Shown here one piece after another: positions 2,713 through 51,600 of a stretch of 64,000 nt of DNA (the stretch's first letter is position 1; every line of letters starts with the position of its first letter). A program made the position numbers and the translations under genes. The stretch comes from Cyanophora paradoxa CCMP329 (lineage: Eukaryota > Plantae > Glaucophyta). The notes below the pieces were generated by a model. The model did not search any database. It was not told the DNA's origin and worked only from the letters and a program-made list of their open reading frames with translations. The DNA is taken from the NCBI GenBank assembly GCA_004431415.1, contig QPMI01000632.1, positions 1 to 64,000 of the forward strand. The letters run 5' to 3'.

Positions 2713-3321
2713 TCATGAGGTGGACACAACATGTACAGCTGCAGCTGGGCGACTTACAGAGTGCACATCCTTTGCTTCAGCTATCTTGCGCGCCTTTGCT
2801 ATCGCATCATGAGCGGCAAGGCCGTACTCTATCACTGCCGGTTGGCCTGGGCGAAAAGAGACGCGCCAGTAGCGGCTTTCCTTTGATTCTGCAGACAGCT
2901 CGTCAATCATTGCTTGGACTTGGCTCTGTTCGTAGGCTCGCTTCCTCCTCTTTGTCAGACACTTGCCTTTGTTGCTTGGAAGCTTGTCGCCTGCCACAGG
3001 AACCGCCCCAAGCCGACCTCCGCAGTCCATGAGCCGTAGATTCTCCCTGCGCAGGTCCAGCTTGCACCCGCTGATGCTGTCGACGCGCCAGTCGTCGTTG
3101 GGCAGGCCGAGGGGGTACCCGAATAGAAAATGATGAGCGTAGGCCACCTTCCCGTCTGGCAATACTGTGTACGGCCAGCTCTGTCCATCCGCAGAGGCTA
3201 CTTGCCATTGGTACATCCAGAGCGCTGGTGCCCGTCGCTTGTCTACTGTAAAGCTCGTGTAGCCCCCGTTTGGGAGAAGGGCGAAGATAAAAGCTGCATT
3301 CCAATCAAATGATCCAGACAT
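2713..3321 (-). CDS. Intronless HNH-AP2-like protein with degenerate HNH active site
   Basis: FTVDKRRAPALWMYQW...AHHFLFGYPLG...WRVDSISGCKLDLRRENLR matches the phage/viral HNH_3 pattern (VDHINGxxLDNRxxNLR) with H>S and N>L. The C-terminal YWRVSF...EYGLAAHDAIAKARKIAE resembles an AP2-type DNA-binding domain. First ATG is at 3321. Confidence 0.6.
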   Translation of the reverse strand: MSGSFDWNAAFIFALLPNGGYTSFTVDKRRAPALWMYQWQVASADGQSWPYTVLPDGKVAYAHHFLFGYPLGLPNDDWRVDSISGCKLDLRRENLRLMDCGGRLGAVPVAGDKLPSNKGKCLTKRRKRAYEQSQVQAMIDELSAESKESRYWRVSFRPGQPAVIEYGLAAHDAIAKARKIAEAKDVHSVSRPAAAVHVVSTS

Positions 3322-14289: not shown

Positions 14290-15652
14290 CCCTGCTGATT
14301 TGCTGCGCGGGGCTCTCCAACGTGCTAAAACGACGTAGAACGTTAGTTACAGCTGAGTGCCACGCTCCACACGCACGCACATGCAAGTCTCTCAACCTCC
14401 TTGTCGATTTGAGTTGTGATCCCCTTCAAGAGTCAGCTGCGGGCGCGCGACGTCAGCGTAAATCGGCGACTTCAGCCGATCCAGCACCGAGGGATCAAAC
14501 GTGCGCGGGGGGAAGGGGGCCTATGATCTCTAAGGAGTGAACAAAGCTCGGCAAATCGTGTCACGGGGGCACCTGCGAAGCCGGTCGAGCGCTTCAAACG
14601 GGTGCTGATTCTCCACGGGAGCGATGCCCGGCCGCTCGCCGGCGCGCCGCAGCCCTCGAATCCAACGCGGTCGGGCAGTCAAGAGTGAGGAGGGGGAACA
14701 AACGGCCGTCGCACATCTACCCCCCCTGCGCGGCGAAGCATCAAATTCGAACTACCGTGAAGCTTTCAATCTGCGCAAGCAGCGCGGCAGTTGACGCCGA
14801 CAGAGGCACCGGCGTGCGCCGCGACATACTGCACGATCGTCGCACGTAACGCGGTTCACGGAGGCATGCGCATGCGCAAGCTCGCTGTACCATCGATATC
14901 GCGGAGTCGACGTCCGCGGCCGGATATCACAGCGAGAAAGAGCTCGGGGGGCATGCGCAAGCTCGCGCGATCGATAGCGCTGCATGCGCACGTGTACATC
15001 GACATCCGCGGCCGGATCCACGCGTACGCCGATGGCCTAGCGCGCAGCCACCGTGGCATGCGCACCCTCAAGGCTTCTCTCGCGAGCCGGACCACTGCCA
15101 GGCTGGGCCTGGCCACGTGCACAAGATTATAATTAAATATTAATATTGATATCGATATTCTTAAGTGAGGTGCGTGTACGTAATTATAAACGACCCAAGC
15201 CATACCACATGTACATTGTATGCTAGCGCTCTCATTGCTACTCTGACGTCGACAGCAATCTCTGAGGTTCCATCGGTATCTCGTAAATCTCTACCTGAGC
15301 TATCGATCCAGCTATATCGATATCCGGGTGGCGGATGTCTAAATCTTCGATCTGTACCTTGAAAGGAATGTCGTCTATCTGAAATGACACACACGTTTCA
15401 CTCATGACCAAAATTACCAGATCTGCCTGCAACTGAGAAGTGCCTCGGAGTCCGAGATAAACTTGCGCTCGAAAGTAGCGTAGCTGTCTGTGCGAAACGT
15501 GAAATGTTGGAGCAATTATAAAATGAAAAAGAAGAGAATTCAAAAGTCTTAGACAGTTCCCTACAACACCATCCGTTAACAAAGAACATTATTCTTAAAC
15601 TTTAGTAAAGCCGAGTATTAAGTGTCAATCAAATGCTCGCGTGGATAAACCA

Positions 15653-18600: not shown

Positions 18601-21600
18601 TTGCCGCTGGGGCACAGGGCGACACCGTTCCACACCTGAAGCCGGTTAAAGGCGGCGGCGAATATGACGGAGCGCCGCGCGCGCGCACCCGACCCAGGAA
18701 GAAACCGCGATCGTCCGTCGATATCGAGCCGCGCCTGCCCTTTGGGCTGCAGATGGCCTCCAGAGAGCTCGCAGGGCGCTTCGGAGGGGCCCTCAGCTCC
18801 TCCAGCGCAGTAACTTGCGGCCCCTCGATCTCCAGCAGCTCCGACAGCGCCTGCGCCCCGCTCGAGCCGAGCTCCGCGCGCTGGCCGAAGGAGAAGGGCG
18901 GGGGCGGCACCTTGCCGACGAGGGCGGAGCGGGGGGCGCGCCAGAGGCGCTCGCTGGCGGGGTTGGCGGCGACGACGCGCGCCGCCCCGTCAAGCGTCAC
19001 GATCGCGTCGTGCGCGCTCGCTGCGCCCCGCGGCCGCTCGGACGCGGCGCTGGGCGGGCGGGCGGGACGCGGGCGGGACGCGGCGCCCCGCACCGAGGAC
19101 GGCGGCGATCTCCGCGAAGCTCTTCCGGAGCCGCTCGTAGAGCCGCGCGTTGACGATCTGAGGCGAGCGACCCGCGCGGGAGCGTCGGAAAGGGGCCGCG
19201 CGCTCGAGAGCCGGCGCGCAGGGCGGGGCCGGCGCACGGAGACGGCCATCTGGGAGGAGAGGATGCGGAGCGTGTCGACGGCGGCGGCCGGGAAGGCGCC
19301 CCGCAGCAGCCGGTTCTCCAGGTACACCGCCCCTGCCCCGCCGTCAGCTGCAGCCCGGCGCGAGACGGGGCGGGGCGGGCGGGCGGGGCGGGGCGCGCCG
19401 ATGGCGCGGGCCTTGTGGGAGATCGGCAGCGCGAGGAGGCTGCGGACGCCCGCGCGCTGCACGTACCCGTCCCCCGCCACCGCCGCCGCCAGCGGCCCCT
19501 CGCCCTCCTGCGGGCCCTCAGCGCGGCGGCGGGCGGGGCGGGGCGGGTGGGGCGGACCGTCCTGGAGCAGTCCTGGACGATGGCGACCTGCTCGGTGGCG
19601 AGGGCCCACTCGACGGCGCGGACGCAGAGCTGCTCGCCGCACTCCGCGAGCGGCGCGCCGCGCAGGACCTCCGTGTGGATCGACGTCGTTCCGAACGCGG
19701 CCGAGGGACGGCGGCTCGTCGGCGTGTGGACCACCTCCCCGCTCGCCTCGACCTGCGCGCTTCAGCGTCGCCCGCGGCGCGCGCGGCGCGTCGGGCGCGG
19801 CTCGCACGTAGTATTGGGGCGGGCCCTGGGGCGGCGTCGGCGCGGCGCCCCCGTCCTCGTCCACGTCGTGCTCCAGGACCTGCGCGAGGACCGGAGTGAG
19901 CGGGGCGGGGGCGGGGATCTGGACGTTCCGCCTGCGAGGCCCCGCGCACCAGGAAGCCGCGCTCGCCGCCGGAGATCTCGAGGATGACGACCATGAGGCG
20001 CTCGAGCAGGCGCCCGAGCTCGATCTCCCGCGAGATGAACTGGCTCGCCGACGCAAGCGTCTCCCTGCCGGGCGGGACGGCATCGGCACCTCGCCACGCG
20101 CAGCTGCGCGCCGCGGGTTCGCAGCTCGCACCAGTTCAGTGCATCGCTCTCGGATGAATCTCGGATGCCGTCCGAAATCGATACCGAGCTCTTGGGGGCG
20201 GCGCGCGGCGGCGGCGAGTTTGGCCGCGAGCAGGGGCGCTGGAGAAGGCCCCTTGTTAAAATTGAGAGACTGGGAGACCGAGGGAAGTTTCGTACCGCAG
20301 GGGGCGATCGCGAGGCCTCGAATGAGGCGCTAGCAGCCGCGGCGATGGAGGAGTCCGCCCTGTCCGGCGCCACTAGAACCGCGTCGAAGCCGCCCGGCCC
20401 GACGGACCAGAAGCTGCCGCGGCGGGAGCCCGGCTTCCGCTTTTGGCTCTCGTTCGCGGTCACAGCGGGCTCCAGTACATCGCACTCCAGATCCGTGCTC
20501 TCCACGACGATCTCGGGTAGCGGCGGCGCCGCGGCGGCGACCCCCGCCTCGGAGACGAGGGCGCGGAGGGCGGCGGCGCGGGGGGCGGCGCCCCAGGCCT
20601 CGAGGGCGGCGGCGGCGACCCGGAGCGGCCCCGACGCCATGCGGCGCAGGCCGAGGTCCACCGCGAGCGACGCAAGCCGCTCGCCGGCGACGGCGCTGCG
20701 GGCGCGGGACGCGGGCGGGGTCAGGGGCGGCGGGGGCGGGGCGGGGCGGGGCGGGGGCGCGCGAGAAGAGGTGGAGGCGCTGCTCCTCGCCGGCGTCGCA
20801 TGCCGCCTCGTACAGCGCCATCGCCTCCGCCGCCGCCCCGCCCGCCCGCCCGCGCCGCCTCCGCCCGCATCACAAGGTGCCTGCCCGCCCCGCTCGCCCT
20901 CGCGGCCGGATGGGGCGGGCGGGCGGGGCGGCGGGGACCGGGGCGGTAGGCGAGGGGGAGGCGTCGGCGAAGGGCGCCATGCCGTCGCAGCAGCGGCGGA
21001 GGCGCTCCGCGAGGCCGGCGCGCTCAGCCGCTGAGAGCGGCGCCGCATCGAAGGACGGCTCCGCCCGCCCCGGCGAGAGCCGCTGCCGGAGGCGGCAGCG
21101 TGAGCGCCGCGGCGCGGGCCGAGCGCGCGGCGCGGGGCGGACCACTCCGATGGCGAGGGCGGTGGCGAAGAGGTAGTCCTGGTACGTCGTGTACCCAACC
21201 CTGAGGAGGACGACGTTCGGGTTTGCCGCGTCGAGCTCCTCGACAAATCGCCACGCCTGCGCGACGCGCGTACGCGTTGCCGGGGGGAACACGTCCGCTG
21301 CTGGGGCAACGCCCTCGGATGCGCACCGTGCCGAAATCGCCGAGGAGGACGCACAGCATGATGGAGAAGTTCGTGTACAGGGCTTTGGCCCTGAACGCTC
21401 GGTCACGAGCGACTTCACAAGGCGACGACGCCCGGCTGGTTCCGCACCAGCAGGGCAGGCCGGCGAAAATCTCGCGGAGGCGGCCCGCGTCGAGCGCCAG
21501 CCGGCCGCACGGATTCCCCTCCGCCGGCGCCAAGACAAGCTCCAGGGGCGGCGCCCTCGGGCCGCCCGCCGAGGCCCCGTCCTCGCCCTGCGACGGAATC

Positions 21601-24600
21601 GAGCTCGCCCCGGCCGGCGCGTCTCTCGCGGCGAGCCGGGCCGCGCACCTGCAGGAGCGCCGAGACGAAGGCGAGCAGGTTCGAGACGACGGCGTAGATC
21701 TCGTGCTTCCCCTCCACGAAGCGGTTCACGGACACGGCTGTGGGATCCAAGCTAAGCCGCGGGCCGCGGCGGACAAATGTGGAAATTGGAACGGGGCGCG
21801 CATCGCTCGTGGACGGAGTAGAGGGGCTCGCAGGACCAGAAGGCGGCGCCGCCCATGCAGGTGCCGGCGATGCAGGCCGAGACGACGTCCCCGGTGGAGA
21901 GGGCGAGCCTGTACGCGCTGTCCCCGATCTGCGCGCCGCCGACCTCAACCGAAGCCCGGCGAGAGCTATGTATGCGGATGAGGCTGCGCCCACCTCCAGC
22001 GATGTGGAGAACGGCTCGGCCAGGACCGAGGCGAGGGAGCACCAGAGGAGGGTCTGCGGGTGCGCCGGTCGCGATCAGCCGCGGGGCGCCGAGGGCCCGG
22101 GCCTATAGGAGTTTATCCCCTTACCTTGGCATCCACACTCGCATAATCATCTTCTGCCGAACGGGAGGCGAGCGCCAGGGCGACCTGCAGGGGCTTCAGC
22201 GCGCGAATGCGGCGGGGCACGAGGGTGCGGCTACCTTTGCGCAGGTCGCCGCGTGCCGAAGAGTCGCGTCGGTGGCAACGCACGCCTGCGCCAGGATCCC
22301 CGCCAGCAGCGCCGTCTCCGGGGCCCGCCCGTGCCGAAGGCTCAGCAGCAGGCACCTGGCGCGGACAGATCACAACAGCGGCCATATATATGAAAGCTCT
22401 CCGGCCGCGCGCGGCCGCACGCACCGCGCGGGGATGAGGCAGAAGAGAACGGGAAGCTGGCTCAAACGGACGGAGAGGGCCGTGTCGGCGCCGACCTGCA
22501 TCAGATCCAGAATGTCTGCACAAAAGCTCAGCGCCAATCACCACCCAAGTCGATCACGTCGGCCGCACCGCTGTCGCGGCACTCCGGCAGGGCGGAGAAG
22601 GCCGCGACCACCTTCTCTCCCCTCTTGTCCAGCTCCGCCGCGGTGCCAGAGAGCGCGCTCGCTATCTCGCTCATCTCCGCCTCGACGTCGTCGAACGTCG
22701 CCTCTGCCCGGCCGTCAGCGATCGCGAGCCTCCCCGCGCGCAGCGAGGGCCGCGGGGCCACCGAAGGAGAAGGAGATGCCCCACAGGGAGCGCAGGCAGT
22801 CCAGCCCGGCCTCCGCGCTCTCCCGGAAGCGTCCCGCCGTGCTCAGGAACGCGATGCGCAGGCGGTACGCTGCCGCCGGCGTCACGGGCGGAGGGCTGCG
22901 GACGGGGGGCGCGCGGCGGGGCGGCACCGCTCAGGCGCTCGGCGCGGGTCTCGGCAAGCTGCCACATCGACGCGATCTCCGCCTCGGCGGCCGCGTAGGC
23001 GCCCGAGAGGTACTTGCACTCGGCCAGCGCGAGCTGCGGGCGGGGGGACGCTCAGCGGGCTTCGGCGGGCTTCGGCGGGGCGGGGCGAGGGCGCGCCGAG
23101 AGGGAGAAGCGGAGGGGGCGCAGCTCGCCGTCGCGGCCGGAGAGGGCGAGGGCGCGCAGGCCGCAGGCGGCGTACTCGGCGCCGCGGGCGTACCCCGCGC
23201 AGCGCCGCGCCCGGCGGGCGGCGAGCAGGTCCAGCTCCGCGATCCCGGCGAGGGCGGCCGCGTCGGCCCCCGCCGGCGGCTCCTCCAGGCACGCGTTCAG
23301 CAGGTTCGCCACCTGCGCCCCGCTCGGCGCCGGCGCCGGCGCCGGCGGCCGGGGCGGGGCGGCGGCCCGGGGCGGACCTCGTAGAGGTTGGCAGCCTCGG
23401 CGGGCTCCCGCATGGCCCCGCGGAGGAGCGTCCCCGCGCGGAAGCAGAGGTCGCTCCGCTCGCGCGCCCCCACCATGTCGTGCGCCGCCTGCGCCCCCCC
23501 GCGTCAGCGGCGGCCCGGCGGGCGTCCCGAGGGGCGGCGGGGGCGCCTGCTGGATCTTGTCGTGCTGGAAGGAAAAGACGGCGTCGCCGGCGCCCTGGAC
23601 GAGGAGGCCCGCCGCGAGCGCCGGCTGCACCGCCCGCTGGCTCTCCTGCGCCCCCGCCCTCAGACGCGGAGAGAGCCGCTGCGGAGGGGCGGGCGGGCCT
23701 CCTCGGAGGCGCCGGTGATGGTCGCGAGCATCGCTGCGTCGAAGGCCGCCCCGCAGCAGCTCGCCACCTGCCGGCCCCGCTCAGCGGCGCGGCGCCGGCG
23801 GGGGCGGGGGCGGGGGGCGGGCCTTGAGGAGGGCCTGGGTGGCGGGGGGCAGGGCGAGGATGGAGAGGGCCGCCATCTCCGCCACGTCGTCCCCTCGTGC
23901 ACCGCGTCCACCTGCCCCGCCCCGCCCTCGGCCCCCGCCGCCGCCGCCGGCCGGGGCGGCGCGGCGGGGCGCACCTCGGCCTGGCTCCAGGTCCAGCGCC
24001 CCGAGGGGTAGTCGAAGTGCAGCGCGCGGCGCTCGACCAGCGCGCGCAGCAGCTGGATCTGCGGCCCCGCCGTCGGTCGCGGGCGCGGCGCAGCGGGGCG
24101 AAGGGGCGAGGCGGGCGGACGGTGTGGAAGGGGTTGCCGTGGGCCTTGCGCACGAGCGACGCGGCCAGCGCCTCCGACCGCTCGTCCTCCGGGGTTTTCA
24201 GCTGCCGCCCGCGCGTAAGAAGCGGCGCGGCGGGCGGGGCGGGGCGGGGCGGGGGGCGCGCCGTGGCGGCGAGGATGGCCTGGCAGTCGCCGCGGCGCAG
24301 GGGCGCCAGCGCCAGCTCGTGCACCGGCACGACCTCGCGGGGGGTGAGGCGGGCGGCGCCGCGCGCTCTGCGGGGGCGGCACCTTGGCGGCCCGGCGCAC
24401 GAACTGGGCGACGGCGTGCTCGTCGGAGACCTCGCAGCTCCTGCGCCGGCGCTCGCCGCCCGGTTGCGGGCTCCGGGGCGGGGCGGGGCGGGGCGGACCG
24501 GTAGGTGGCGCAGAGGGCGACGGGGAGGTCCGACGCGAGCACAAAGTCCGCGAGGGAGAGCGTCTCGGGGTCCGCCCACTGCGGCCGCCTCAGCGGCCGG

Positions 24601-26476
24601 CGACACGGGGCAGGGTGGGACGGGCGGGCGGGCGGGCCTGGAGATCGTCGAGGAGGACGAGGGTGGGCAGGCCGGGCGCCGAGACGGCCCGCAGCAGGTC
24701 CACCACCAGCGACCGCAGCCGCGCCTGCAGCTCGGCGGGGCGCGCCTCGGGCAGCGGGGGCGGGGCGGGCCCGAGCAGGAGCTTGGCGGCGGGGGCGACG
24801 TCGACGAGGAGGCGGGCGCGGGGCCCGAGGGCGCCGGCGACGGCCTCGCGGCGGCGCGCGACCTCCGCGGGGGCCCCGCCAGCAGCCCGCAGAAGAGGTC
24901 CTCCAGCGCCCGGAACCAGACCGCCAGCGGCGCCCGGTTGTACTGGTCCGCCTTCCCGTACAGGTGCCGCGCCGCCGCCCCTCCGCCGCCGCCCGCCGGC
25001 ACAGCTCCCGCGCCGCCATCGTCTTCCCCGCGCCCCTGCCGCCGCGTCGGCCGCCCGGCGGGCGAGGCGCGAGGGGCGCTGCAGACGCACGCGGGCCCGC
25101 TGACGACGATGAGCGCCGGCCGGGCGCTCTCCTGCGCGGCCGTGTCAAGAGGCAGCGTGAGCGGGGGGCGCGGGGCCGGCACCTTGGCGGCGCGGCAGGC
25201 GTCGAGGGCGCGGGCGATGTCCTGCGGCGCAGCGTGAGCGCCGCGCGGCTTTGGGGCGGTTTGCAACAGAGGAGTGGACCTGGGTGGGGCCGCCGCAGGG
25301 CGCGTCGGGCATGCTGAGCCGCGCGCTCACGTCCCGCTCCCCCAGGCCGAACGTCTCCTGCCCCCGGCCCGCGCGGTGCAGGTCCCGGCACCTGCGCGCC
25401 GGGCCCGGGGCGTCAGGGGTACGCCGGGGCCGGGCGGGGGCCGGGGTCGCCTCCTGAGGTCGTGGAGGAGGCCCCAGGCCGACTGGTAGCGGTCCGCCGG
25501 CGTCTTCGCCAGCAGCCGCTGCGTCCCGCTCGGGGGGTACCGCGCGGCCGGGGAGGAGCAGGGGTACCTCGACGATCGCCTCGAAGGCCGGGGGTACGAC
25601 GGGGTTCAGCTGCGTCACCCGAGGCGGCCTGCGGGGCGGTGGGCGGGGCGGGGTAGAAGGGGTGCGGGGAGGCCCCGGGGCACCGCTTCGCGAGGTGCCC
25701 GTGGAGGTACTCGAGCGCAGTGGACCCCTCGAACGGCCGGCGGCCCGTCGCGCACTTGAAGAGCACCAGCTGGGGGGGAGGGGTCAGGGGTACGGGAAGG
25801 GAAGGGTCGCGCGGGGCCGGCCCCGCACCCCGAGGAGGTACAGGTCGGACCGCTCGTCGGCCCCTGCGGCGTCGGCGTCAAGGCCCCAGCGGCGGGGCGG
25901 GAGGGGCGGGCGGACCCTCAGAGACGCCCATCCTGCCGGAGAGCTCGGGAGCCGTGTACGCGTACCCCTCCATCGCCTCCGCCGGCTCCGCGCCCGCGGC
26001 CTCCCCCCGCGGCTCCGCATTGCCGAAGCGCACGAGGACTGCTGCGCATGCGTCGCGCGTCAAGGCCCTGCGGTGAGAACGGGGTGCACGGACGTCCCCA
26101 GCGCACCGGTCCTCGCGTCCTCGCCGCCACCAGCTCCAGAGCGATCAACGCGGAAGAAGATGTTGCGCGGCTGTCAGGGGGATCGGGGCTCAGCCACTTC
26201 AGCGAGTGAAGGAAGAGATCAAATCTTCGCACCCGGAGCGCGGACAGTAGCAAGCCGCGCGAGGAATCCGAGCTCGAAGGTTCATGCGCGGCATAGAGCG
26301 CGTCGGCGAGCGCGACGCTGAGGTCCAGCAGGCGTGTGGCGTCGAAAGGTCCAGCTTGCGCGATAGTTCTGCTAGGAGAATGGTACGGGTCGGGGGGTCG
26401 AATGGGGTGGTCGAGGTTGGTTCACAGCGCGATTTGACCTGTTAAGTTCTTCCCATCCTTCGGTCGGGTCCATCAT
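15653..26476 (-). CDS. Multi-sensor hybrid histidine kinase, copy A (pseudokinase C-lobe, AAA/STAND ATPase, helical region, GAF, PAS, HisKA, HATPase_c, REC); dozens of introns
   Basis: Spliced motifs [27 protein letters not shown]|GAGKT, LLDDLQ|[38 protein letters not shown]|H|[20 protein letters not shown]|IGI, GGTGLGL, GRGSRF, LVDD, ILL|DVEM|P and FLCKP. ATG at 26476, TGA at 15653. Confidence 0.9.
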
Positions 26477-36600: not shown

Positions 36601-39600
36601 TGTCCGAGGCGGGCGTCGCCGCCGCGGCCGCCTCGCCGCCGCCCGCGATTTCCGTCGGGGGTGCGAACCCTCTCAGCGGTAAGGAAGAAAGCGATCAGTG
36701 GCAGCCAGCCGCGGCGGTGCGCTGGGGCAGCTTCCGGTCGTGCAGCCCGCCGAGCAGCTCGGTCAGTCTCGATCGCGAGACATCGTCGACCGCGCGAGCG
36801 CCCGGCAGGACGGATTCGTCCGGAGTCTCTCCCCCGCCGGCGCTGGGGGCCGCAGCGCCGGCCGCACGGCGCAGCGACCGGCCGCAGCGCAGGGGCTCGT
36901 TCTCGCTTTCGATCTCGGAGGAGAACGCGCACAACTGCAAGGACTCTTCGTCCGAAGGCGACGCCCTCAACTGGTGCGCGCCACAGCGCAACCCGCCGCC
37001 CGCGTCGAGATCGAGATCTCGAGCGCGGTCCGGCAGGGAGACGTTGGCGTCGGCGAGCCAGTTCATCTCGCGGGAGATCGAGCTCGGGCGGCTGCTCGAG
37101 CGCCTCATGGTCGTCATCCTCGAGATCTCCGGCGGCGAGCGCGGCTTCCTGGTGCGCGGGCCTCGCAGGCGGAACGTCCAGATCCCCACCCCCGCCCCGC
37201 TCACTCCGGGCCCCGCGCAGGTCCTGGAGCACGACGTGGACGAGGACGGGGGCGCCGCGCCGCCCCAGGGCCCGCCCCAGTACTACGTGCGAGCCGCGCC
37301 CGACGCGCCGCGCGCGCCGCCCGGGCGACGCCAAAGCGCGCAGGTCGAGGCGAGCGGGGAGGTGGTGCAGAGCTCGGCGAGCGCGGAGCACCGCCACAGG
37401 CTGTCCGGCCGCCGTCCCTCGGCCGCGTTTGGAATCTCGTCGATCCACACGGAGGTCCTGCGGGGCGCGCCGCTGGCGGAGTGCGGCGAGCAGCTCTGCG
37501 CCCGCGCCGTCGAGTGGGCCCTCGCCACCGAGCAGGTCGCCATCGTCCAGGACTGCTCCAAGACGGTCCGCCCCGCCCGCGCCCCGCCGGCCGCCGGCGC
37601 GCTGAGGGCCCGCAGGAGGGCGAGGGGCCGCTGGCGGCGGCGGTGGCGGGGGACGGGTACGTGCAGCGCGCCGGCGTCCGCAGCCTCCTCGCGCTGCCGA
37701 TCTCCCACAAGGCCCGCGCCATCGGCGCGCCCTGCCCCGCCCGCCCCGCCCCGCCCCGTCTCGCGCCGGGCTGCAGCTGACGGCGGGGCAGGGGCGGTGT
37801 ACCTGGAGAACCGGCTGCTGCGGGGCGCCTTCCCGGCCGCCGCCGTCGACACGCTCCGCATCCTCTCCTCCCAGATGGCCGTCTCCGTGCGCCGGCCCCA
37901 CCCGCGCGCCGGCTCTCGAGCGCGCGGCCCCTTTCCGACGCTCTCGCGCGGGTCGCTCGCCTCAGATCGTCAACGCGCGGCTCTACGAGCGGCTCCGGAA
38001 GAGCTTCGCGGAGATCGCCGCCGTCCTCGGTGCGGGGCGCCGCGTCGCGCCCGGCCCGCCCAGCGCCGCGTCCGAGCGGGCGCGGGGCGCAGCGAGCGCG
38101 CACGACGCGATCGTGACGCTGGACGGGGCGGCGCGCGTCGTCGCCGCCAACCCCGCCAGCGAGCGCCTCTGGCGCGCCCCCCGCTCCGCCCTCGTCGGCA
38201 AGGTGCCGCCCCCGCCCTTCTCGTTTGGCCAGCGCGCGGAGCTCGGCTTGAGCGGGGCGCAGGCGCTGTCGGACCTGCTTGAGATCGAGGGGCCGCAGCT
38301 CACGAGGCTGGAGGAGCTGAAGGCGCCCCCGAAGCGCCCGTCCAGCCCGATCGAGTCCATGCGCAGCCCGAAGTGCAGGCGTCGCTCGCTCTCGGCGGAC
38401 GATCTCGGTCGGGTGCGCGCGTCGCGCGGCGCGCCGCCCCACCACCCCCGCCGCTAACGCTGACGCCGCATCTCGCGTCCGTCAGGTGTGGAACGGTGTG
38501 GCGGTGTGCCCCGGCGGCAAGATCGAGGTCGAGGTCTGCTTCACGTCGCTGGAGGAGGCGGCCGGGGCGGAAGAGAAGCCCGCGGAGGCAAAGCGCTACT
38601 CCGCATTCATCGTGCGCCCCGCCGCAGCCCGCCCGCCCGCCAGCCCGCGCGGGGCGCCCGGTCCGATCGTATGGGCGCCGCAGCGCGACGTGTCGGCGAG
38701 GGTGCGCGCGGAGAAGCAGCTGCAGGCCGTCCGCAGGCGCTGGTTCGCCATGGTCACGGTCCGCCGCGCCCGCCCGCGCCCCGCTTTCGTTTCGTCGATG
38801 TGTTCCTCCGGCCTGATCGGGTCTGCGCCCCGCAGCACGGTCCGGCTCCCTCGCGCGGGCCCCGCGCGATCGCGGCGGCCCCACTCACGGGGGTGGCGGG
38901 AAAAAATGGTAAAGTGGGGCTACTGTCACCACATCGATTAATTCCCAATATATCAAACAATCCCAATCAAAATCCTCTCGATTCTCAGTCTTTACCAATC
39001 AGAATTCAACAAATTCTCAGTCTCTCAATCACAATTAATCGAAGTTATATCTTAAATTAATTAATCGAAGTTATATCTTAAATCTTATTTATCGAAGTTA
39101 TATCATAATCTCGATTAATTATATTTAATCGAAGTTATATCTGATTGTTATATCCTCATTGATTGTTTCATATAGGAGCGAATATCATAATCTTATTAAT
39201 CGAAGCTATATCAAAATCTCGATAAATTATATTTAATCGAATTTTACCCGATCCAAAAAATGACGACTGTTTTTAAATTTACCATATCGATCTGTAAATG
39301 ACAACGATAATACCCGAAGATGTTAAACAAATTCTTCAAGATTTACCGCTTATTCCAGATGAGCAACAATTAAGCGAATTGATTGAGAAAACCGCTAATA
39401 GTGCTGGTTTAGATGTTAACAAACTACCAAGCAAATATAAAACAAATCTTATGAAAGGCTTCTTATCTACCATGGAAACTATGAACACACACCAATATTT
39501 ACAAATATTAGAAAAAAGACATGATGTAAACCATACACGCTGTAAATTACGTAGGAAATTGATTTTGAAAAATGCAATGGAGTTTCAAACATTCCTTGTT

Positions 39601-42600
39601 ATCTAAACCGTTATTGTTGTGGGTTCATTACTAATTCTTATTGATTCTCTCTTTTTTATCGCTCGTCTCTTAACAAACTTCTTAAAGCCCTTCATATCAT
39701 CATCTGTTAATATTGCCCGGTCTGTGTATACTTTTATATCATACCCTTGCAATCCAGTTATGACTGTTTGGTAGTTATAACCCCACAGTCTATGCAATTC
39801 CTTGTAGGTCTTTTTATCAAGACCCCCATTATACTCATCATAAGCGCAATTGAACTCTTTTTCGTTCCCAAGAATATTGAAAAATACTACGAACTCAACA
39901 TTTCGACGAATTGTAGTAGAAATAGAGCATAAACGTTGAGTATTTATAATTACTGTAATCGAATAATGACGGGCTGTAGTGATCAATTTAGATAACACAG
40001 CCGAATTATGCATATCCAAAGAAGAACCGATCATATCATCAAGTATAATAACAAGATTGTTGCGTTTTGCATTATTTTCGATTCGTTTCTTTTGCATGCT
40101 AATGAGTTTCACTACTACATTATCGTCCCATTCCTCATAGATATTATCAGGATGCGTTATATCTCTGAATTGACCAGTAAACGCAGTAGAACTAAAGACT
40201 ACAATCTGATCGATCTTATCCCTCAGTTCATAAAGTAGATATTTGCAGTAAGTTGTCTTACCAGAATTGCTGCGCCCACATAATAAAAAACGCGTGCTTA
40301 ATTTAACTGTTCTTGCAGGCTCAAACTCCGGGATGTCATTCAAATCAATATCCATTCCTGTGTTATCCATTACAGTAATAAGATAAAAAACAAAATAAAC
40401 CCCTTACCTACTAATTTTGAGCTTTCTACTATAACGAAAGAAAAAGAACTTTAGAAGTTCGAGACTTTCAGGGTAGAGATGTTGTAGCCATTGAGGACCA
40501 TAACATTGTGTCGTAGGGCATAGATATCAACCTGAACAGGAGCAGCATCAGTGCATCCCGAAACAGTGAGATCCATGTAACTGGAACTGCTGTTGAAGAA
40601 ATCCTGGTAACCCATAACACTGTTCCGAAGCGAATCTTTTCCAGATTTGGAAAGAACGATTCCGTAAATATTTCCATTCTCGAATCCATAAGTAGTATTG
40701 CCAACAGTAACACCCTTGTAATGAGAAGGAATGTGATTGATAGCCGAGAGGAAACCAGAAATGGGTTTGTTGGAGATATCCAGGGAGCGATTGTTGTGGA
40801 AGATCTGGAACTGATCGATCTTAACATCCGAAACATGACCACAGAAATCAGAGTGAGTGTAGGTGTTAAGTTTGTTCACCTCTCGAACTGTCATGAGAAT
40901 CGAATGAACCAGACCAGAAACATTAGCGAGTGTCACCTCAACCGATTCACCAGCATCAGCGGTTTTGAGCGCTCGTGTCTTCTTGTGGATGACCTCTGTG
41001 ATCGGAATGCGAATGCCACCTTGTTCATTTGCCATTTTCAAAAGTGTCTCAGCCTCAGCCGAAGCGATGTTTACAAATTGACAGATCAGGGAGCAATCCG
41101 CAAATGTAACAGATCCACCAGCAGGAACTTTGACTATCCCAGCATCACGGAAATCAACCTCGATTGTTGGCATATCCGCCAGTGTGCATAGTGGGAAGTA
41201 AGCATCATCCCAGAAAGCAGCGGGAATTTTCACAATGTATTCCATAGCCTCATCTGTGCTTTCACGATCAAGTTCTTTGAAGTAACCAAGAGAAGCATAC
41301 ATGCTGCTCATGGTAGCATGATCATTATCAATCAGAGCGTTAACAGTTATCCAGTCACCAGGGATGATATACTTGAAACCACCATGAACAAAGCGGACCT
41401 CATTAATATAGGAAGAACCACCATTGGGGAGGGTGCAGGCTACACCACCACCAGTGGCAATCTTGAAATAGAGCGAAACACCAGCAAGGAGTTGCTTGCG
41501 AGGTAGATCAAAGTAAGCGGTATTCTTAAAGCCAAAAGTATTGCCTCGGGGACGAACTTGCTCGAGGAATGGTTTGTACTTGGGGTTGGTTCCGATTTGG
41601 AGACCAGGGATAGATAAATTTGATCGGAACCGGGAGTTACGAGGAGTTCCTTAAGGGTAGTTCCAGTGAGTGCCATCTCTTATGTTTAAAATACCAAAAG
41701 AAATTTTTAAAATGCTTTATTAAACAGAATGACGCGTCATTACCTTAATATTGATTCCAGGGACCGAGATGATGGAACCCCAACGAACTTCACTTATAAA
41801 ATTCCCCATGCAATCCAAAATGTGAGAGCCTGCAGAGTGACTAACTTTGAGATGTTCAATAACATTTACAATCTTAGCGAGAATGGAAGTTTGATTACAG
41901 GAACCTATGATGCTGGAGATGTAATTAAAACTAAGAATAACACTATTTCAAAAGGGACATATACTTCGGATAGTTTGGTGAATCTTCTAAATGCCAAACT
42001 AGCTTCACAAGTGTATGGTGCAGCAGGAACTACCTATACTCGCCATTTCTACGTTACATATGATCCTGTTACCATGTTTCTAAGGTTCATGTGCGATGCA
42101 ACATTTACCCTCACCTTTGGAAGTCGGATCTTAGCAAACTTCCTTGGGTTTCCAGAGCGCAGACCTGACAGTTCAGAAAATGGTTACGCTTCTGCCCTGC
42201 TGGATTCACCTGTAACAGTCGGAGCTAATACTTATAATTACTACATTGACAGTGTTATACCGCTCGATCTTCTGTTCAACTCTTACATCCTTCTCCACGT
42301 TGACCCACTCAAAGGCAACTATGTAAGCAAGAACACAAGCGATGATAAAGCCCTCGCAAAAATCGAGATTGATCAAACGGTAGGCAGTCTCTTAAAATAT
42401 GATTCATCGAATAATTCCATGATCCTGCATGAGCAAAACGGTTTGGTGGAAGTTGAAACGCTAAAAGTTCGTCTCACATACTGGAATGGTGCCGAAACGG
42501 ATATTACCACTGATTGGTCGATGACGCTTGAACTCATTACGGAAGATGATAAAGATCTGACAAAGAAAGCATTGAAGAATGTCATTAAAGAGTTGGAGGG

Positions 42601-45600
42601 ACTCTACTTGCCGTTCTCACGGTCATAGGAAATACTGTAGAATAAATTTGTCTCGATATTACAAATGGCAACTCGAAAGACCCAGCCAAAGAATTTCTTA
42701 GCCAAACCAGTTGAGCAAGCGGAACCAGAACGGAAACAGTTTAAGAAATCAAAAGGAACCGCTGCATATGGAACTGGTGATCTCGATAAAAATGTTCACC
42801 AGACCATGAATGCTCACACAATTGCGCTTACTTCAAATTATAATGATGATAATGCCCTGGTTGACCAAGTCCCACTGAACCGCATGCCTGGAGCCAAACG
42901 AGGAATCAAGAAAGGACAGTTCAAATCATCGACAAAGGACAAGGTTGCCTCATCATCAACACTGCTGAAACTGCTTGATGGTGGTGAGCGACTCTACTCA
43001 ACCTATTCCGAGAAAGACCATCGCAACCGCTACTTTATTCGTTCAACCACTGGTGGACTGAAATCTGTGACATACCAGTATGCTAGGAGTCTTGTTGATG
43101 GCATTGCAGCAGAGACCAAAAACGAAAACAGGATCAAGGAACAGCCAATCACAAAGGAAAAGGTGGAGAAGAAACCAGAAGTAACCCATGAAGTCATCCC
43201 TGAACCTGTTCATGTCGTGAAAGAATCACCAGCCGAATTGATTGCAAAGACCATCGATTATCAAGAGTCCAACAAAACGGATTTGCCGGTCCTCAATAAA
43301 TCAATCCTCCGGGTTGCCACTTCACAGGCTGATCCAGTCAACTCGATTCCAAATGCTGCCCCAATGGTCTCAGGGTTTGCCAAGCTCGGTATTAAACCTG
43401 GTTATCGCCGTTAAGGATCATTTCCGAATTAAAAAAATCTTGAACATTGTTAGCGCTACGTAACCAATCTTATCCCGTAGGCTCAAAACTTCTTCATTTT
43501 TATGGAGGCGTTGTAGAGCGAAGTGAATTATCCACAGATATCACTTTAATCACCCGTTCTACCGGGTTCAGTGGTAGAAACTTGCATCCGACAAGTGAAC
43601 CTTTTTGGGTATCGGTGGCTTTATCATTTTTCCAGCATCTTCTTTCGTACTGGATGCTCTGCAATCGGGACCAAAATTTGACAGGAGTTTAATCGCTATA
43701 TACAGACAGAAAAACTACTTAAAGATTTCTTAACATATATTAAGAGAGTAGAAAAGGACAAAATGCCAATCAGTGAGGCTCAGAAGCGTGCTACTTACCG
43801 TTATCGCAAAACTGAAAAAGGTCAGGAATATTTAAAAAAGTATAATGCGAAATTCGCAAAGCAAATGCGTGATTTATACCATACTGATGAGTGTTACAGA
43901 GCCATGAGAATCGTTGAGAGTTCCCAGCGTCTCTATGCTTCCAATGCAGTCTGCTTTGTGAAGTATCTCTATGGCGTCCCCTATTCTAACCGTGGTCGCA
44001 AATCGAAATATCTCTGTTAATTGTTTTTCTCAGCGCGATCTGCTCTGAGAAACCCGTGGGAACCGCGCTGGAACCACAAATAAAATCATTCTGTTATTTT
44101 TAGAGTTCGATGATCGAGCCAACCCTTTGTTATTTTTATGAATGCCCTCGACTGAATTAATTTTGTTGGAGACTTTTGGTTTTGCCGGTAAAATTTGACG
44201 CGAGTATAAAAGTATTTAAAGAAAACTTTTGTAGGTATATATTAATAGAGTGAACAAAGAAATGCCTCGACCAAGTAATCGAATTTCGAAGAATTTGCAG
44301 GATGAGATTCTTGGTTACTACATGCAAGCAAAAGTAGAAGACAAATTGACCCGAGAGCAGGATATCTATTTCTTGAGAGAATTTACTTTCAAAGCAATTA
44401 GAATTCCAAAGTTGATTGATATCAGAGATACACTGAGAGGTATCGTAGAGCCTCGTTTGTATCGCAAGCAGGAGAAGAAGGAGAAGAGGGCTGAGAGAGC
44501 CGCTAAGAATGTTGCAAAACGGCAAGCAAAGACCAAAGAAGTGCAGAAATACAAAAGAAATCAGCAGAAGAAGGCCAAGAAGCAAGAGAGGGTTCAAAAA
44601 TGGAAGTCAAAGCAGGAAGCCAACCAGGTTCAGGTAATGAATGCCATGAATCACCTAGTCGAAGAGATTACATGGAAAAACCCTAAGAAAAACCTAATTA
44701 ACACAATCCATCGGTTTATCACTGAGAAGATAGGATGGGATGATCTCCACAGAAGACTTCAAGAGGCTTTGGACAGACACAATGGAATTAAGTTCCAGTT
44801 CAAAGTGAAGGCCAATTACAAATACAAGGAGAAGCAAAATGGAAGGTGGACAGGAGAGTACCAATACGCAACCAGATATCCAAGCTCAATGCAGTTTTAC
44901 CTAGTTCTTCCAGCAAATGACCTAACGGATATCGTAAGGCAAGCTGTGGATGATCTGCATGAAATCATGACAGCCATTGAGTATGCAGAGGTTCACAATA
45001 TTCTCGAAGTAACCCTACAAATTCTATCTTACACACCTCTGACAGGAAGTTCTTACATTCCTCTTCCAGAAGAGATTGAAAAGAGAAAGGCTGTTATCAA
45101 TCCTAAGAATGAAGACCAAGAATGTTTCCGACATGCTGTTAAGATTGGCTTGCATCACAATGATGTCATTCGAAACCACAGATCTGAATTGAAACGATAC
45201 AGTAAGTGGGACAAGGAATTTGATTGGAGTCGCTTTGAGTTCCCAGTCAAGAATGATTCTAGAGTTTACGATCTAGCTTCAAAGATGATTGGTAGACCTA
45301 TCAATGTCTACTTCCTTGATAACAAGAAACGAGTCTTCCCTATCCATGTGAACAAGAACCCAGCAGAGCAGCACAAGACCATTGACCTTTTGATGTGGAG
45401 TGATGGGGAGAACACCCATTATGGCTTCATTTCAAGTCTATCGAGACTCATTCCAAGCTCACACAAGGAAACGAAGTATTTCTGTAAATGCTGCTTGAAG
45501 GGATTTACAGGTCAAAGGATCCTCGATAATCACATTAGACTAAGCAGATGCTATGAACGACCAACAGCAACTATTGATGTGATGCCTGAAGCAGGAAGCT

Positions 45601-48600
45601 GTATTATGTGGGATCCACAGAGAAATGCAGACAAAACAGTTTGGCATCCGATGTTTGCAGTTGCTGATTTCGAGTGTCTCCTGAAATCTGTTGAAAGTGT
45701 TGTGACTCGTGTTGATGAGAAAGGTGTTAAATACGATTCAAATAATAACGAGATCAACACCGAAATTTACCAAAAGCACATCCCTTGCGCTTACAAAATC
45801 ATGATCATGCATAAGGACAAGATCCTAAGAGAAGTCCTCTACCAGAAACAAGATCCAAACAACGATGATGAGGTAATCAATCATTTCATGACAACTCTCA
45901 AAAATATGGAGGCTGAGTTGCTTGAAAAGGTGAGAGAGGTCGAGCCAATAAAGATGGATCGATATGACAAAATGAATTTCAAAGAAGCCACATGCTGCTA
46001 CATTTGCGAGGATCAATTCGTTAAATATGGAGAAGAGGGTAAGGTTTTCATTACAAAGAAAGTCAGGGATCATGATCATACCACAGGTAAATATCTTGGG
46101 GCTGCCTGTGATAAATGCAACCTGAGAAGAAGGGTTAACCCTAAAATTCCTGTTATATTCCACAATCTGAAAGGGTATGATGGACACTACATTCTAAAAG
46201 CTCTCGGTGAGCATGCAGACCCAGGAAAAGAGATCCGCTGTATCGCTGAGAATTTCGAGAAGTTCAAGTGTTTCGACTTTAACAGCTACAAATTCGTTGA
46301 TTCCCTGAATTTCATGCAAGAAAGTCTTGACAAACTTGCTAGTAATCTCGGTCACAGAGACAACTATAAATACACCAATGAATGGTGTGACCAGCATACA
46401 ATTACGGAGACCCAAAGAGAACTCCTGATGAGGAAGGGATTCTTCCCTTATGATTACTTGGATTGCCTTGATAGACTCAGCGAAACTAAACTTCCCAGCA
46501 AAGAGGCTTTCTTCTCAAAGCTTAATGATCGTGAAATTAGCGACAGTGACTACAAGCATTGTCAGAAGGTGTGGGATGCATTTGATTGCAAGACACTTGG
46601 AGATTACATGAAGATCTACCTTGAAACTGATGTGTTCCTTCTCGCTGATGTGTTTGGTCACAATTTCCGACAGAGATGCTATAAAGATTATGGACTTGAT
46701 CCTATCCATTTCATTTCAGCTCCACACCTCAGTTGGAATGCTATGTTGAAACTTACGAAGGTTGTTCTCGAAAACATTGATGATGATGAAATGTATCGTA
46801 TGTTCGAGCTTGGAATTCGTGGTGGAATATCGATGATAGCTACGCGGAATGCTCAGGCTAACAATCCATACATGAAGAACTTTGATCCAACAAAGCCAAT
46901 AAAATACATCATCACATGGGATGCCAACAATTTGTATGGATTTGCTATGTGTCAAAAGTTACCTATTGGTGATTTTGAATGGATCGATAACGTTGAAGAC
47001 TTTGATTACATGAAATTTGATGCTGATGGTGAAACTGGGGCATTATTGGAGGTTAATTTGGAGTATCCAGATCATTTGCATGATGAGCATAGCGATTCCC
47101 CACTAGCACCTGAATCTATGGTAGTAACTGAGGACATGTTATCACCTTCCCAACTTGAAATGCTTGGTGAAGAAAAGCTTCCTGGAAACCGAAAGTTGGT
47201 ACCCAATCTGAACAACAAACACAACTACGTTCTTCACATCAAGAATCTGCAATACTATGTATCAAAGGGTATGATTGTGAAGAAGATCCATCGAGGGATT
47301 GAATTCAAACAATCGGCTTGGTTGAAACCTTACATTGATTTCAATACTGAGAAAGGAAGCAGGCACAAAATGATTTCGATAAGGATTTCTACAAGCTCAT
47401 GAATAATTCGGTGTATGGAAAAACCATGGAGAATGTCCGGAATCGTAGCAACATCAAACTCTGCCACAACCCAGAGAAGCAGGCGAAACTGAATGCAAAC
47501 CCTCTACTGAAAAAGGTTAAGATCATCACCGAGAACCTGACAGCAGTTGAAATGTATCGTGGAACTATTCTTCTCGATAAACCAATCTATGTTGGTCAGG
47601 CGATCCTTGATTTATCAAAACTTGTCATGTATCAGTTCCACTACGATTACATTCGCAAGAAGTATGGATCGAAAGCCAAACTCCTCATGACTGACACAGA
47701 TTCGCTGTATTACATTATTGAGACCGAGGATCTATACAAGGATATGAACTCTGACTCTCATTTGTTCGATCAATCGGAATACAGTCCTTCTCACATTTGC
47801 TACAATCCTCAAAATAAAAAGGTTCCTGGTTTATTCAAGGATGATGCCGGTGATTTGGTTGTAACTGACTTTGCAGGATACAAACCAAAGGCCTACTCTT
47901 ATTTGAAGGATTTGAATGTCAAGGCTCTTGGTTCGGAAGAAGATGTGAAAAAGGTGATTGCTAAAAGGTTGAAGGATAGTGGGAAAAGTTCAGAAGAAGA
48001 TGTAAAGAAAGATACTGTAAAGAGGTTGAAGGGAATCCAGAGATGTGTAGTTAAAAACAAATTAGAGTATAAGCATTTCTATGATACTGTCATGGGCAAG
48101 AGCAGGATCCTGTTACAGTTAGAGGAATTCGTTCAAAGAACCACGAGGTATCAACACTTGAAATGAAAAAGAGGGCATTCAATGCGCTTGATACCAAGAG
48201 GTATCTTTGCGAGGATAAGGTGAATACTCTTGCAATTGGGCATTACAGAACTCGCTAAGGTTAGGTTAAAGAAATTGATTGCTTATTGTAATGGAGCAGG
48301 TATTGAGCTATACAAAATATAGACAAAAGCTAATCAATGAGGGTGTAAAGTTTGATGAGGATGAATTGAAAAAGAGATTTAAAAACAGTGAATTGAATCA
48401 GATTTTCAAGAAGCCTACCAAGCCGAAATCGTTTCTTAGAATCGTAGCCCCACCCAATTCTTTTCAGGTTGATATTATATATTTCAAGGATTATAAGACA
48501 GCAAACTATGGTGTGGATCGCATGCTAGTATTCGTAGATATTTTGAGTAGGAAGGGTTTTATATTTCCTTTCAAAATGGTCACTGGGAAGGAGAAGAACG

Positions 48601-51600
48601 ATGAGAAGAAGATTGAGATTCTAAACAAATTTAAAAGCCAAGCTGGAACAGTCCAAGCTCTTTCCGGAGATAAGGAGTTTTCAGGGAATATTTACAAGAA
48701 ATGGTGTGAGGATAATGGTGTGGTTTTATACACAGACATTGCCAAAGATGACCACATTACAGTTGGGGATAAACTCGGAATAGTTGATAGGTTCACAAGA
48801 ACAATCAAGCAGTATTTAAGGAAGGCTATAAAGTCAACTGGGAACTCGAAGTGGACTGAATTTTATGAAGATGTGCTGGCGACTTACAATAACAGTCCAC
48901 ACAGTTCACTGAAGAATGATTCTCCAAATGCTGTGTATGGAAATAAAGAAAAGGAAACGTATGTTTACTTTCGTGATTCACTGCATAATAAGCATGTGAG
49001 AGAGGGATTACCAAAAGTGCAAGAAGGAGATTATGTGAGGGCTGTGAATCCAAAGGGAGTTTTCGAGAAAGAGGGTGCAAGGTTCAATGAGAAAGTGTTT
49101 AAGGTGGCTGGTAAAGTTCAGAATAAATACAAACTTTTGGAGGATAATGAAGGTGAAACAGTTCGTGAAGTTCGAAGAAAATTCAAAATAAATGAGTTGC
49201 AAAAAGTAGATAAAGAGGCTGTCGTAAAGATACCAACCCAAAAGAGAGTTGAGAGGGTAAAGAAAACCACAAATGTGAATCGAGTGGTTTCCCAAAAAGA
49301 AGGAATAAAACCAAATCGTAAGAAAGTAGTTAGAAAGAGATATAATTTGAGAAGTGGATTAACTAAACGTTAAGCTCTAATATCAGATCCATCATCTGAT
49401 TCAATAAATCTTGTAACTGGTTTGAATCTTTGAAATACATCTTTGTGGTGAATTCCTTTTACATACCACCCTTTGTTTACAGGATCCCATCTGAGTCCCA
49501 TACACTTTGCATCGAAATTATCTTTAAATTGAACTTTGCAGTAGATCTTTTCATTTCTGTATTTAATTTCTTTTTCATTGATCGTTTGGAATTCTTTCAG
49601 TAAATCACTATTTGCATCTTCTGTATACCAAAGTTTCATTTCATAATCCCATTTTGCTCCTTTCTCTTTTGCGATTTTTCGATCATTGTAATCACAATCA
49701 AAGTAAAACTTCTTAATTGTATTTGTCTCCATTTTATTCAGATTATCATATTATTTTTATATGAAACAATCAATGAGGATATAACAATCAGATATAACTT
49801 CGATTAAATATAATTAATCGAGATTATGATATAACTTCGATAAATAAGATTTAAGATATAACTTCGATTAATTAATTTAAGATATAACTTCGATTAATTG
49901 TGATTGAGAGACTGAGAATTTGTTGAATTCTGATTGGTAAAGACTGAGAATCGAGAGGATTTTGATTGGGATTGTTTGATATATTGGGAATTAATCGATG
50001 TGGTGACAGTAGCCCCACTTTACCATTTTTGGCGGGGGCGCGCAGACCTGCGGACGCCGCTGAACGGGATCGCGGCCTCGCACGAGCTCATCCGCGACAC
50101 GCCCCTCTCCCCTGAGCAGCGCGAGTACGTGCAGCACATCGGGGCCGCGACCGAGCTGCTCGTCTCCCTCATGAACGACGTGCGCCGCTTCCCTCCCGGA
50201 CGAGGCGGCGGCCGGCACGCTTCCTTGCCTGACGCCGCGGGGCGGGGCGGGGGTCAGATCCTGGAGTACTCGCGGCTGGAGGAGGGCGGCGGGGCGGAGC
50301 CGCGGCCGGCCCCCTTCGACCTCGTCGAGCACATGGAGGGCCCGCCCCCGCCCCGCCCCCGCCCGTCCCCCGCCCCGCCGACGCCGCCGGCAGAGACGGC
50401 GGCGCTGCTTGCGGGCGGGGCGCGGAGCAAGGGCGTCGAGCTGCTGCTCCTCGTGCCGCCGGCCGTGCCGCGCCTCGTCGTCGGCGAGAGCGTCCGCCTC
50501 CGCCGCATCGTCATGAAATGCCCTTTACCCGAGCCCGCCCCGCCCTCCCGCCGGCCGGCTAACCCCGCCCGCCAGCTACGCGTCGAACGCGATCGAGTTC
50601 AGCGAGCGCGGCGGGCGGGTGGAGCTGCGGGTCGACCTCGCGGCCCGCGGGCCCGGCGCCTCCGCCACCCTCCGCTTCACCGTCACCGACACCGGGTGCG
50701 CGCCCCTCTGAAGCCCGCCGGTCTGCGGCGCCCTAACTCCGCCACCTGCAGCATCGGCATCGCGAAGGGTGACCCGCTCGATGCTCTCCGAGCGGCCCTC
50801 GCGGCCGCCGCTAAGACCGCCCCGCCCCGCAGAGCACCAGCACCTCCTCTTCCGCCCCTACGGCCAGGTCCGGGGCCCCGCGCCGGCCCTCCCGCCCCGC
50901 CGCGCCCGCCCGAGCGCCGCGGGTGCAGCTGGCGGCGGATGACGTCACGCGGATGTACGGGGGTACCGGCCTCGGCCTCGTGCGCCTCCCCCGCGGGCCC
51001 CGCCCGGCGCGCCTCACGCGGCGGCAGGCGATCGCGAAGCGGCTGGCGGAGAGCCTGGGCGGGGCGGTCGGCGTCGAGTCGGAGCCCGGGCGCGGCTCCC
51101 GCTTCTGGGCCACTGCCGTCCTGCAGCTGCAGGAGGTGCACGGGGAGCCTGCGCGCCTCTGCGGCGGCGGCCTCACGCGCCGCCGCGCGCAGTGCGAGCA
51201 GCCGGAGTGGCCGCGGCTGCGGGGCGCCGTGTGCACCGTCCTCGCGGCGAGCGCCGGCGTCGCCGACCTGCTCGATTTCTACGTCTCCCAGGTCCCGCCC
51301 CGCCGCCCCTCGCGTCCGCCCTCGCGATGCGACGCGCGCGGCAGTGGGGCGGGACGGCGCGGCGAGGAGCCAGCGCGGCGGGCCAGCCCAACGACGCCGG
51401 CGGCGCGGCGGTGGCGATCGGCGACGCGGCGGCGCTCGCCGCGGGGCCGCTCCCGCGGCGGCGCGCCCTCGCGCTCCTCTCCGCCAAGGTCCGCCCCCGC
51501 CCCGCCCCGCCCCGCCCGCGCCCCCGACGCCGCGCGCAGTCGGAGGAGGCCGCCGCGGCGCGCGTCGCCGCCGAGTGCATCGGGAGCCCCGTCCTCCCCT

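Follow-up and report, generated by a model that had tools for sequence, protein, structure and literature searches.

Glaucophytes are one of the three lineages with primary plastids, and what is known of their viruses is limited to survey counts. One survey catalogues 156 glaucophyte Polinton-like viruses (PLVs), of which 139 have an A32 ATPase, 85 an rve integrase, 49 a pPolB replicase and none a protease (PMC12220804). Another counts, in its Table S4, 366 major capsid proteins (MCPs) in Cyanophora paradoxa, which fall into two 'new' and apparently unnamed clusters of 272 and 94 sequences and by our count of the columns lie apart from PgVV and the other named groups; its Table S2 holds a C. 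paradoxa MCP, a 312-aa entry on contig QPMI01000512.1 (PMC10120064). Alpha-adintovirus-like variants have also been noted in C. paradoxa contigs (PMC8502044, section 3.4). Here we analyse a window of 64,000 nt, positions 1 to 64,000 of contig QPMI01000632.1 of C. paradoxa CCMP329, in which an integrated element of 11,130 bp occupies positions 38901-50030. With good confidence, we read it as an 11.1-kb PLV whose insertion, probably recent and marked by a 6-bp target site duplication (TSD), struck a short intron in one copy of an inverted pair of histidine kinase genes, and we regard the frameshifts in its genes as likely assembly errors.

An earlier interpretation of the window from its letters alone, hereafter the sequence-only reading, had proposed a complete, compact and apparently young Polinton-like endogenous virus. 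The length of 11,130 bp, the matching 273-bp terminal inverted repeats (TIRs) and the perfect 6-bp TSD on which it relied were all reproduced. The right TIR (49758-50030, minus strand) and its counterpart at 38902-39174 show no difference over 273 nt, and one additional A at 38901 extends the left terminus (terminus and TIR, 38901-39174, plus strand). The element thus ends in AAAAATGG...CCATTTTT, with six A at the left and five T at the right; the sixth A is present in short-read contigs of runs X15 and X17. The termini therefore do depart from AG..CT as had been claimed, but the two ends are unequal. GGCGGG stands in direct repeat at 38895-38900 and 50031-50036 (both plus strand), and this hexamer occurs at 0.42% of host positions within the window. 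The far lower GC content of the element also holds, at 38.7% against 73.6% in 20 kb of flanking DNA. Nine genes fill 87% of the element, with intergenic gaps of -4 to 348 nt, and none of them requires an intron. Their description as nine packed intronless genes applies once the breaks in the MCP and pPolB genes are read through, but not to the sequence as assembled, and in the sense of open genes the word 'complete' had to be given up, as the assembly has one frameshift in the MCP gene and two in that of pPolB.

Towards the left end lie the genes of the capsid arm. On the minus strand are an A32-type genome packaging ATPase (39603-40370, 255 aa; Pfam Pox_A32, E 1.9e-14) and a double jelly-roll MCP (40451-41676), with the assembly frameshift near 41607. 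Folding of the single MCP sequence reached a predicted local distance difference test (pLDDT) score of 30; the model built from a 6-sequence alignment has a pLDDT of 67 and a predicted template modelling (TM) score, pTM, of 0.74. In Foldseek comparisons, this model matched PBCV-1 capsid proteins (E 4e-18, TM 0.72) and, more weakly, the MCPs of mavirus and Sputnik (E 6e-11 and 8e-11), and in the Atlas the protein scores 0.98 to capsid clusters. A word-index search matched none of 3,925 candidates. Full HMMER searching of 1.84 billion representatives yielded six matches, five of them capsid-like at 24-28% identity, none of these five being named as Polinton and one, at 24% identity, being named from C. 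paradoxa. The sixth match, P0004, which has jacalin repeats, was dropped as spurious. In a small database, the MCP profile also matches an MCP-like gene, that of IMG/VR locus L005 (E 3e-10). As for the catalogued MCP on QPMI01000512.1, it is approximately 96% identical to that of the element (11 differences in 299 residues, counted by eye) and reads uninterrupted across the break.

Next to the MCP gene, on the plus strand, the gene at 41729-42628 codes for a 299-aa protein that is likely the minor capsid (penton) protein, judging from its position and from Atlas scores of 0.97-0.98 to viral clusters, one set of which has DUF5901 on 17% of its members. Its N-terminus has a weak pairwise match (E 0.002) to the gene that follows the MCP in L005, and profile comparison gave no significant match. 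Of the virion module, pPolB and integrase announced by the sequence-only reading, the MCP, ATPase, pPolB and integrase are thus established, and the penton is likely, with weak direct tests. A scan that detects close relatives only found none for the ATPase and the penton candidate in viral contigs and none for the MCP and the integrase in metagenome contigs.

The replicase arm comprises pPolB and the integrase. The pPolB gene (44262-48258, plus strand; Pfam DNA_pol_B_2 and Endonuclease_7) is interrupted near 47352 and 48094, and its three pieces line up in order along single genes of IMG/VR loci. Identity is 37-42% to the 120 relatives listed, out of 4,088 passing, and the named ones among them come from molluscs and cnidarians. 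A putative vOTU pair (Cys288 and His386), three exonuclease motifs and motif A are common to 119-120 of these 120 sequences; motifs B and C fall within the second piece. The domain scheme, with its proposed cleavage of the terminal protein, is that of 10.1101/2024.03.18.585575. In a FastTree phylogeny, pPolB sits on a long branch together with four short-contig sequences (support 0.95), apart from the named animal ones.

The rve-type integrase (48291-49373, plus strand, 360 aa) has the triad D61-D127-D166. Its profile matches retroviral integrases (E 2e-9), whose third catalytic Glu aligns with Asp166. As 27 of 31 relatives have Asp at this site and four have Glu, the Asp is a trait of the clade and not a sign of decay. 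Pfam gave no chromodomain match in the protein. A literature search, with subscription journals and bioRxiv supplements outside its scope, turned up no described Asp-Asp-Asp integrase in Polintons. Among the IMG/VR loci L001-L012, a motif pattern caught nine integrases, five with Asp and four with Glu at the third site, and the Asp-type ones pair with different replicases. In L001 (2273-7097) and L002 (1621-7657), which belong to the giant-virus bin GVMAG-M-3300023179-2, an integrase of the Asp-Asp-Asp clade comes after a large HNH and superfamily 1 helicase gene. These two contigs have 16% GC and gave no match to the MCP profile, and their modules appear transpoviron- or Tlr1-like.

The insertion site, which did not figure in the sequence-only reading, lies in a host gene for a hybrid histidine kinase, within an intron. 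A micro-exon of 4 nt (CACG, 38836-38839, plus strand) encodes the phospho-accepting His of the kinase H-box. It is followed by the intron holding the element (38840-50045, plus strand; 70 nt without it) and by an exon encoding HisKA (50046-50179, plus strand; Pfam HisKA, E 2.3e-9), with a receiver domain near 51860 (Pfam Response_reg, E 2.2e-4). Removing the element and one TSD copy restores the 70-nt GT-AG intron and the frame of the H-box, and a spliced contig with the 4-nt exon order, fitting both paralogs, is found in run X17. The gene is part of an inverted host duplication, whose arms (15652-26336 and 30772-52585) are 91-93% identical with patches of 90-99%, a pattern that may reflect gene conversion. 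Without the element each arm measures approximately 11 kb, the 4.4-kb spacer holds a zf-AN1/UBX gene, and the two copies of the hybrid histidine kinase gene that result stand head to head. In the inverted paralog, 32 kb away, the empty target site (18206-18211, minus strand) reads AGCGGG, once. Since this empty site is in the window itself, the pre-insertion state is known, the insertion is genuine and misassembly is very unlikely; the duplication predates the insertion. A paralog of this kind fits the view of C. paradoxa as probably haploid, with much duplicated DNA (PMC6704402, section 3.1).

The element has come to stand between the acceptor at 50045 and a branch-point-like CTCAC motif at 38884, which is now separated from the 3' splice site by 11.1 kb. 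No CT[ACG]A[CG] motif is present in the last 85 nt of the enlarged intron. From these motifs, splicing of the occupied paralog is likely to be impaired, with the intact paralog covering the loss.

The frameshifts and the age of the insertion were assessed with short-read contigs. Of the 24 runs listed, 14 contain at least half of the words of 38001-48000; X15-X24 were only guessed to be RNA runs. The MCP span is one base, and the pPolB span two bases, short of a multiple of three. One additional base is present at the MCP break in contigs of four of four runs (X1, X4, X9 and X12), and one at each pPolB break in contigs of two of two DNA runs (X1 and X9). All three sites are homopolymer runs, and the family majority sequence has open frames at each of them. 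A similar loss of one base in a G run frameshifts a host exon in the kinase paralog at approximately 16895 (minus strand). An X4 contig, with 426 nt over 427 and a single gap, seems to retain the base, which suggests assembly error in the host DNA too. Homopolymer-type frameshift artefacts have been reported in endogenous viruses (PMC10120064, section 7). We take the three frameshifts of the element to be, most probably, homopolymer errors of the assembly. As for age, the main family pPolB contig and the window copy differ, over 3,058 nt, by four substitutions and a single gap; the family integrase contigs differ from the window copy by one or two substitutions in 1.2-1.8 kb. With its identical TIRs and such close siblings, the element is likely a recent integration, as had been proposed. 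The 29 nt directly upstream of the integrase gene (at 48290) are absent from the window copy and present in family contigs. There they end, directly before the integrase start, in a GCGAAGC motif, which is known as a very stable mini-hairpin.

The element belongs to a mosaic family. In X1, X4 and X12 the pPolB contig is 4.6-10 times as deep as the host contigs, which suggests a handful of near-identical siblings, depth being a rough measure. The summed depth of the capsid arm is 7.5-9.6 times that of pPolB in all four runs, with other sequences branching off at 44514; the capsid arm is therefore common to many more elements than the pPolB-integrase arm. This agrees with the presence of pPolB in only 49 of the 156 glaucophyte PLVs (PMC12220804, Table S6) and with the module swapping described in 10.64898/2026.10.13.758929 (section 13), which cites a contig with the assembly code of C. 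paradoxa.

How such an element might operate can be proposed from its gene families. The linear genome would be copied from its TIR ends by pPolB, with the terminal-protein part at the polymerase's own N-terminus as primer; the vOTU domain would then cut this part away. The A-run termini would suit a sliding-back initiation as in phage phi29 (PMC3480470), a link that is our own. The Asp-Asp-Asp integrase would insert the ends with a 6-bp stagger, and the MCP, penton and A32 ATPase would package the genome without a maturation protease. Family scans of the nine open reading frames (ORFs) found no gene for a maturation protease, a fibre, a lipase or an RNA polymerase, and without an RNA polymerase gene transcription would have to be borrowed from the host or from a giant virus. 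C. paradoxa has been reported to methylate CpG sites in repeats and viral genes and to carry endogenous giant-virus regions (PMC12344493, section 9), making silencing and a helper both plausible. The copy has likely persisted because a duplicated gene was struck, so that the splicing of one paralog only would be impaired.

Several observations weigh against parts of this account. Among the matches listed, none crosses the right junction. Either paralog could have given rise to the spliced contig, which bears on the proposed splicing impairment, and the penton assignment is a weak call. The terminal-protein domain of pPolB found no counterpart among the 120 relatives, and in the low-depth run X9 the pPolB depth rises to 16-35 times that of host contigs, contig depth being a poor measure of copies. 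Since the contigs that supply the corrected bases are mergers of several near-identical copies, they do not prove that the window copy is intact; nor does a homopolymer error account for the 29-nt gap, which may be a true lesion. That a free viral or contaminant contig was wrongly joined to host DNA would agree with the sharp GC step and with the missing right junction. The left junction, however, is crossed by contigs of X15 and X17, from different studies, with the occupied-arm flank followed by six A; thus, the junction-spanning sequence whose absence the sequence-only reading would have taken as a sign of misassembly exists at the left end and is not among the matches listed at the right. 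Together with an exact 6-bp duplication of what is a single site in the paralog, and with the intron and kinase frame restored when the element is removed, this leaves such a misjoining scarcely credible. The X15 junction contig (1,965 nt) retains intron sequence and would end near 40728 if colinear; it may stem from read-through or outward transcription. X15 has no cover over 46901-48660, which is evidence neither way, and the integrase pieces in X15 and X17 differ from the window copy at 10 positions in 733 nt and hence come from other copies. It could also be that the insertion is polymorphic, some cultures being without the element or having lost it through gene conversion from the empty paralog. 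A 956-nt contig of X9, in which occupied-arm letters are followed by the empty site of the paralog and again by an occupied-arm letter, speaks for this, but with a depth of 9.5 identical stretches can lead an assembler from one paralog into the other. The empty sequences in X1, X4, X9 and X12, which were considered as an allele, are letter for letter those of the in-window paralog and were ruled out as such, and the check for insertion polymorphism put forward in the sequence-only reading has accordingly demonstrated none. We find a polymorphic insertion quite improbable.

A genuine insertion whose copy is already dead, with intact siblings elsewhere, would take the three frameshifts and the 29-nt loss as real. 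They do stand in the window sequence, and the short-read contigs do merge copies. Yet the one-base losses are all in homopolymers, next to only about six substitutions in the 5-kb replicase arm, and a host exon, and probably the right terminus, show the same type of loss, so that we regard a dead copy as unlikely. On the sequence evidence, we favour a genuine, young and compact insertion that is probably intact save for assembly errors and a single small gap. It might nevertheless spread as a self-synthesizing transposon, with capsid genes that are passengers or are used only upon giant-virus infection, in a virophage-like defence. The missing RNA polymerase, fibre, lipase and protease genes agree with this idea, and so do the giant-virus regions and viral-gene methylation of C. 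paradoxa (PMC12344493) and the presence in a giant-virus bin of L001 and L002, with the same integrase clade and no match to the MCP profile. More of the family nonetheless shares the capsid arm than the replicase arm, and this suggests continued use of the capsid genes. Spread as a transposon is a serious possibility, if somewhat short of probable; it is compatible with a recent PLV insertion and concerns the trigger alone. A bolder proposal is that the family is a still-active, near-minimal (11 kb, nine genes) inducible virus of glaucophytes, with a capsid outside all named PLV groups, which inserts in culture by means of its Asp-Asp-Asp integrase, swaps replicase arms while keeping a common capsid arm, forms particles upon induction and has switched off one kinase paralog by interrupting an intron next to the 4-nt catalytic exon. 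We put it forward tentatively and consider it doubtful as a whole.

The remaining genes of the element are small. The ORFs at 39298-39606 (102 aa) and 43763-44020 (85 aa, basic), both on the plus strand, have no significant Pfam, PHROG or NCBIfam match, and that at 42665-43414 (plus strand, 249 aa, lysine-rich) has no match in the same collections. The gene at 49370-49732 (minus strand, 120 aa) codes for a protein with two copies of DUF5710 (Pfam, E 3.4e-15). PHROG, NCBIfam and sigma-70 scans of the small ORFs yielded nothing further. Five copies of the repeat ATCGAAGYTATATC are found at 39038-39199, the final copy barely inside of the TIR end. The AT-rich repeats of the inner TIR end (39027-39244) fold more strongly than 100 of 100 shuffled sequences (z -3.1) and differ between family members; they are possibly origin or promoter elements. 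At the edge of the window, positions 1-3516 (minus strand) hold intronless ORFs, the first of which is cut by the window edge. One match is to Herpes_ori_bp (E 2.5e-5); another, to the plasmid replication protein CyRepA1 (E 1.4e-15), falls well short of the cut-off. This region is possibly the edge of another virus-derived or mobile element.

Our literature search turned up no isolated DNA virus of a cultured glaucophyte, as far as the sources it reached go. If the family is indeed active and inducible, a cultured glaucophyte gains a tractable DNA virus of its own. A young, compact and apparently intact family in an axenically cultured model alga would be a practical handle on induction, helper dependence, particle formation and the recombination of capsid and replicase arms within one genome, and the empty paralog provides a built-in control for the effect of the insertion on the host gene. 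Specialists will be only mildly surprised, since protist genomes often contain young, TSD-flanked PLVs and a public table already includes the capsid family.

As to whether the lineage is undescribed, as the sequence-only reading had suggested, the answer is mixed: a near-identical C. paradoxa MCP is listed and 366 are counted in PMC10120064, but the clusters are unnamed there and the same literature search turned up no paper describing glaucophyte PLVs. The lineage is catalogued but not described. The consulted parts of PMC10120064 and PMC12220804 give no genome map, termini, integrase motif or insertion site for the family, and the element, at 11.1 kb, is smaller than the ranges of 14-40 kb and 15-30 kb stated in these two sources. 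It shares an A32 ATPase, an rve integrase, pPolB and the lack of a protease with the catalogued glaucophyte PLVs. What is new here is the small size, the Asp-Asp-Asp integrase, the A-run termini and a capsid arm that is more widely shared than the replicase arm.

Among the named groups, the protease-less PLVs (Aquintoviricetes: TsV, PgVV/Gezel-14T, Dino) resemble the element in their reduced morphogenetic module of three genes, given as typical of them in PMC12220804. The match between its MCP profile and the MCP-like gene of L005 points the same way, weakly, whereas the C. paradoxa MCPs form 'new' clusters separate from PgVV and the other named groups in PMC10120064. Mavirus-like virophages offer another likeness. 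The endogenous mavirus-like elements (EMALEs) of Cafeteria are GC-poor, TIR-bound and equipped with pPolB and an rve integrase in a GC-rich protist genome, much as the element is. Unlike them, it has an MCP fold closer to the PBCV-1 type and neither protease nor helicase, and the virophage-type MCP and protease of the virophage class (Maveriviricetes / Virophaviricetes) were not found in it. With Polintons and alpha-adintovirus-like elements (Polintoviricetes), it shares a pPolB with the vOTU Cys and His, exonuclease, palm and an endonuclease VII-like insertion, and with Polintons also the rve integrase and the 6-bp TSD. It differs from Polintons in having no adenain-type protease gene, in an MCP that matches no Polinton MCP by sequence and is not of the Mavpol type, in an integrase with Asp in place of the Polinton Glu at the third site and no chromodomain match, and in a pPolB on a long branch with four short-contig sequences. 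Polinton termini are AG...CT, whereas those of the element are A-runs. Its assignment to the Polinton-like endogenous viruses is upheld: the double jelly-roll MCP, A32 ATPase, TIRs, TSD, GC shift, replicase and integrase that belong to the operational definition of PLVs in PMC10120064 and PMC12220804 are all present, next to a candidate minor capsid protein. From its gene content, the element would thus be a PLV by that definition, one that appears to work like a Polinton while departing from Polintons in its protease, capsid and terminus features.

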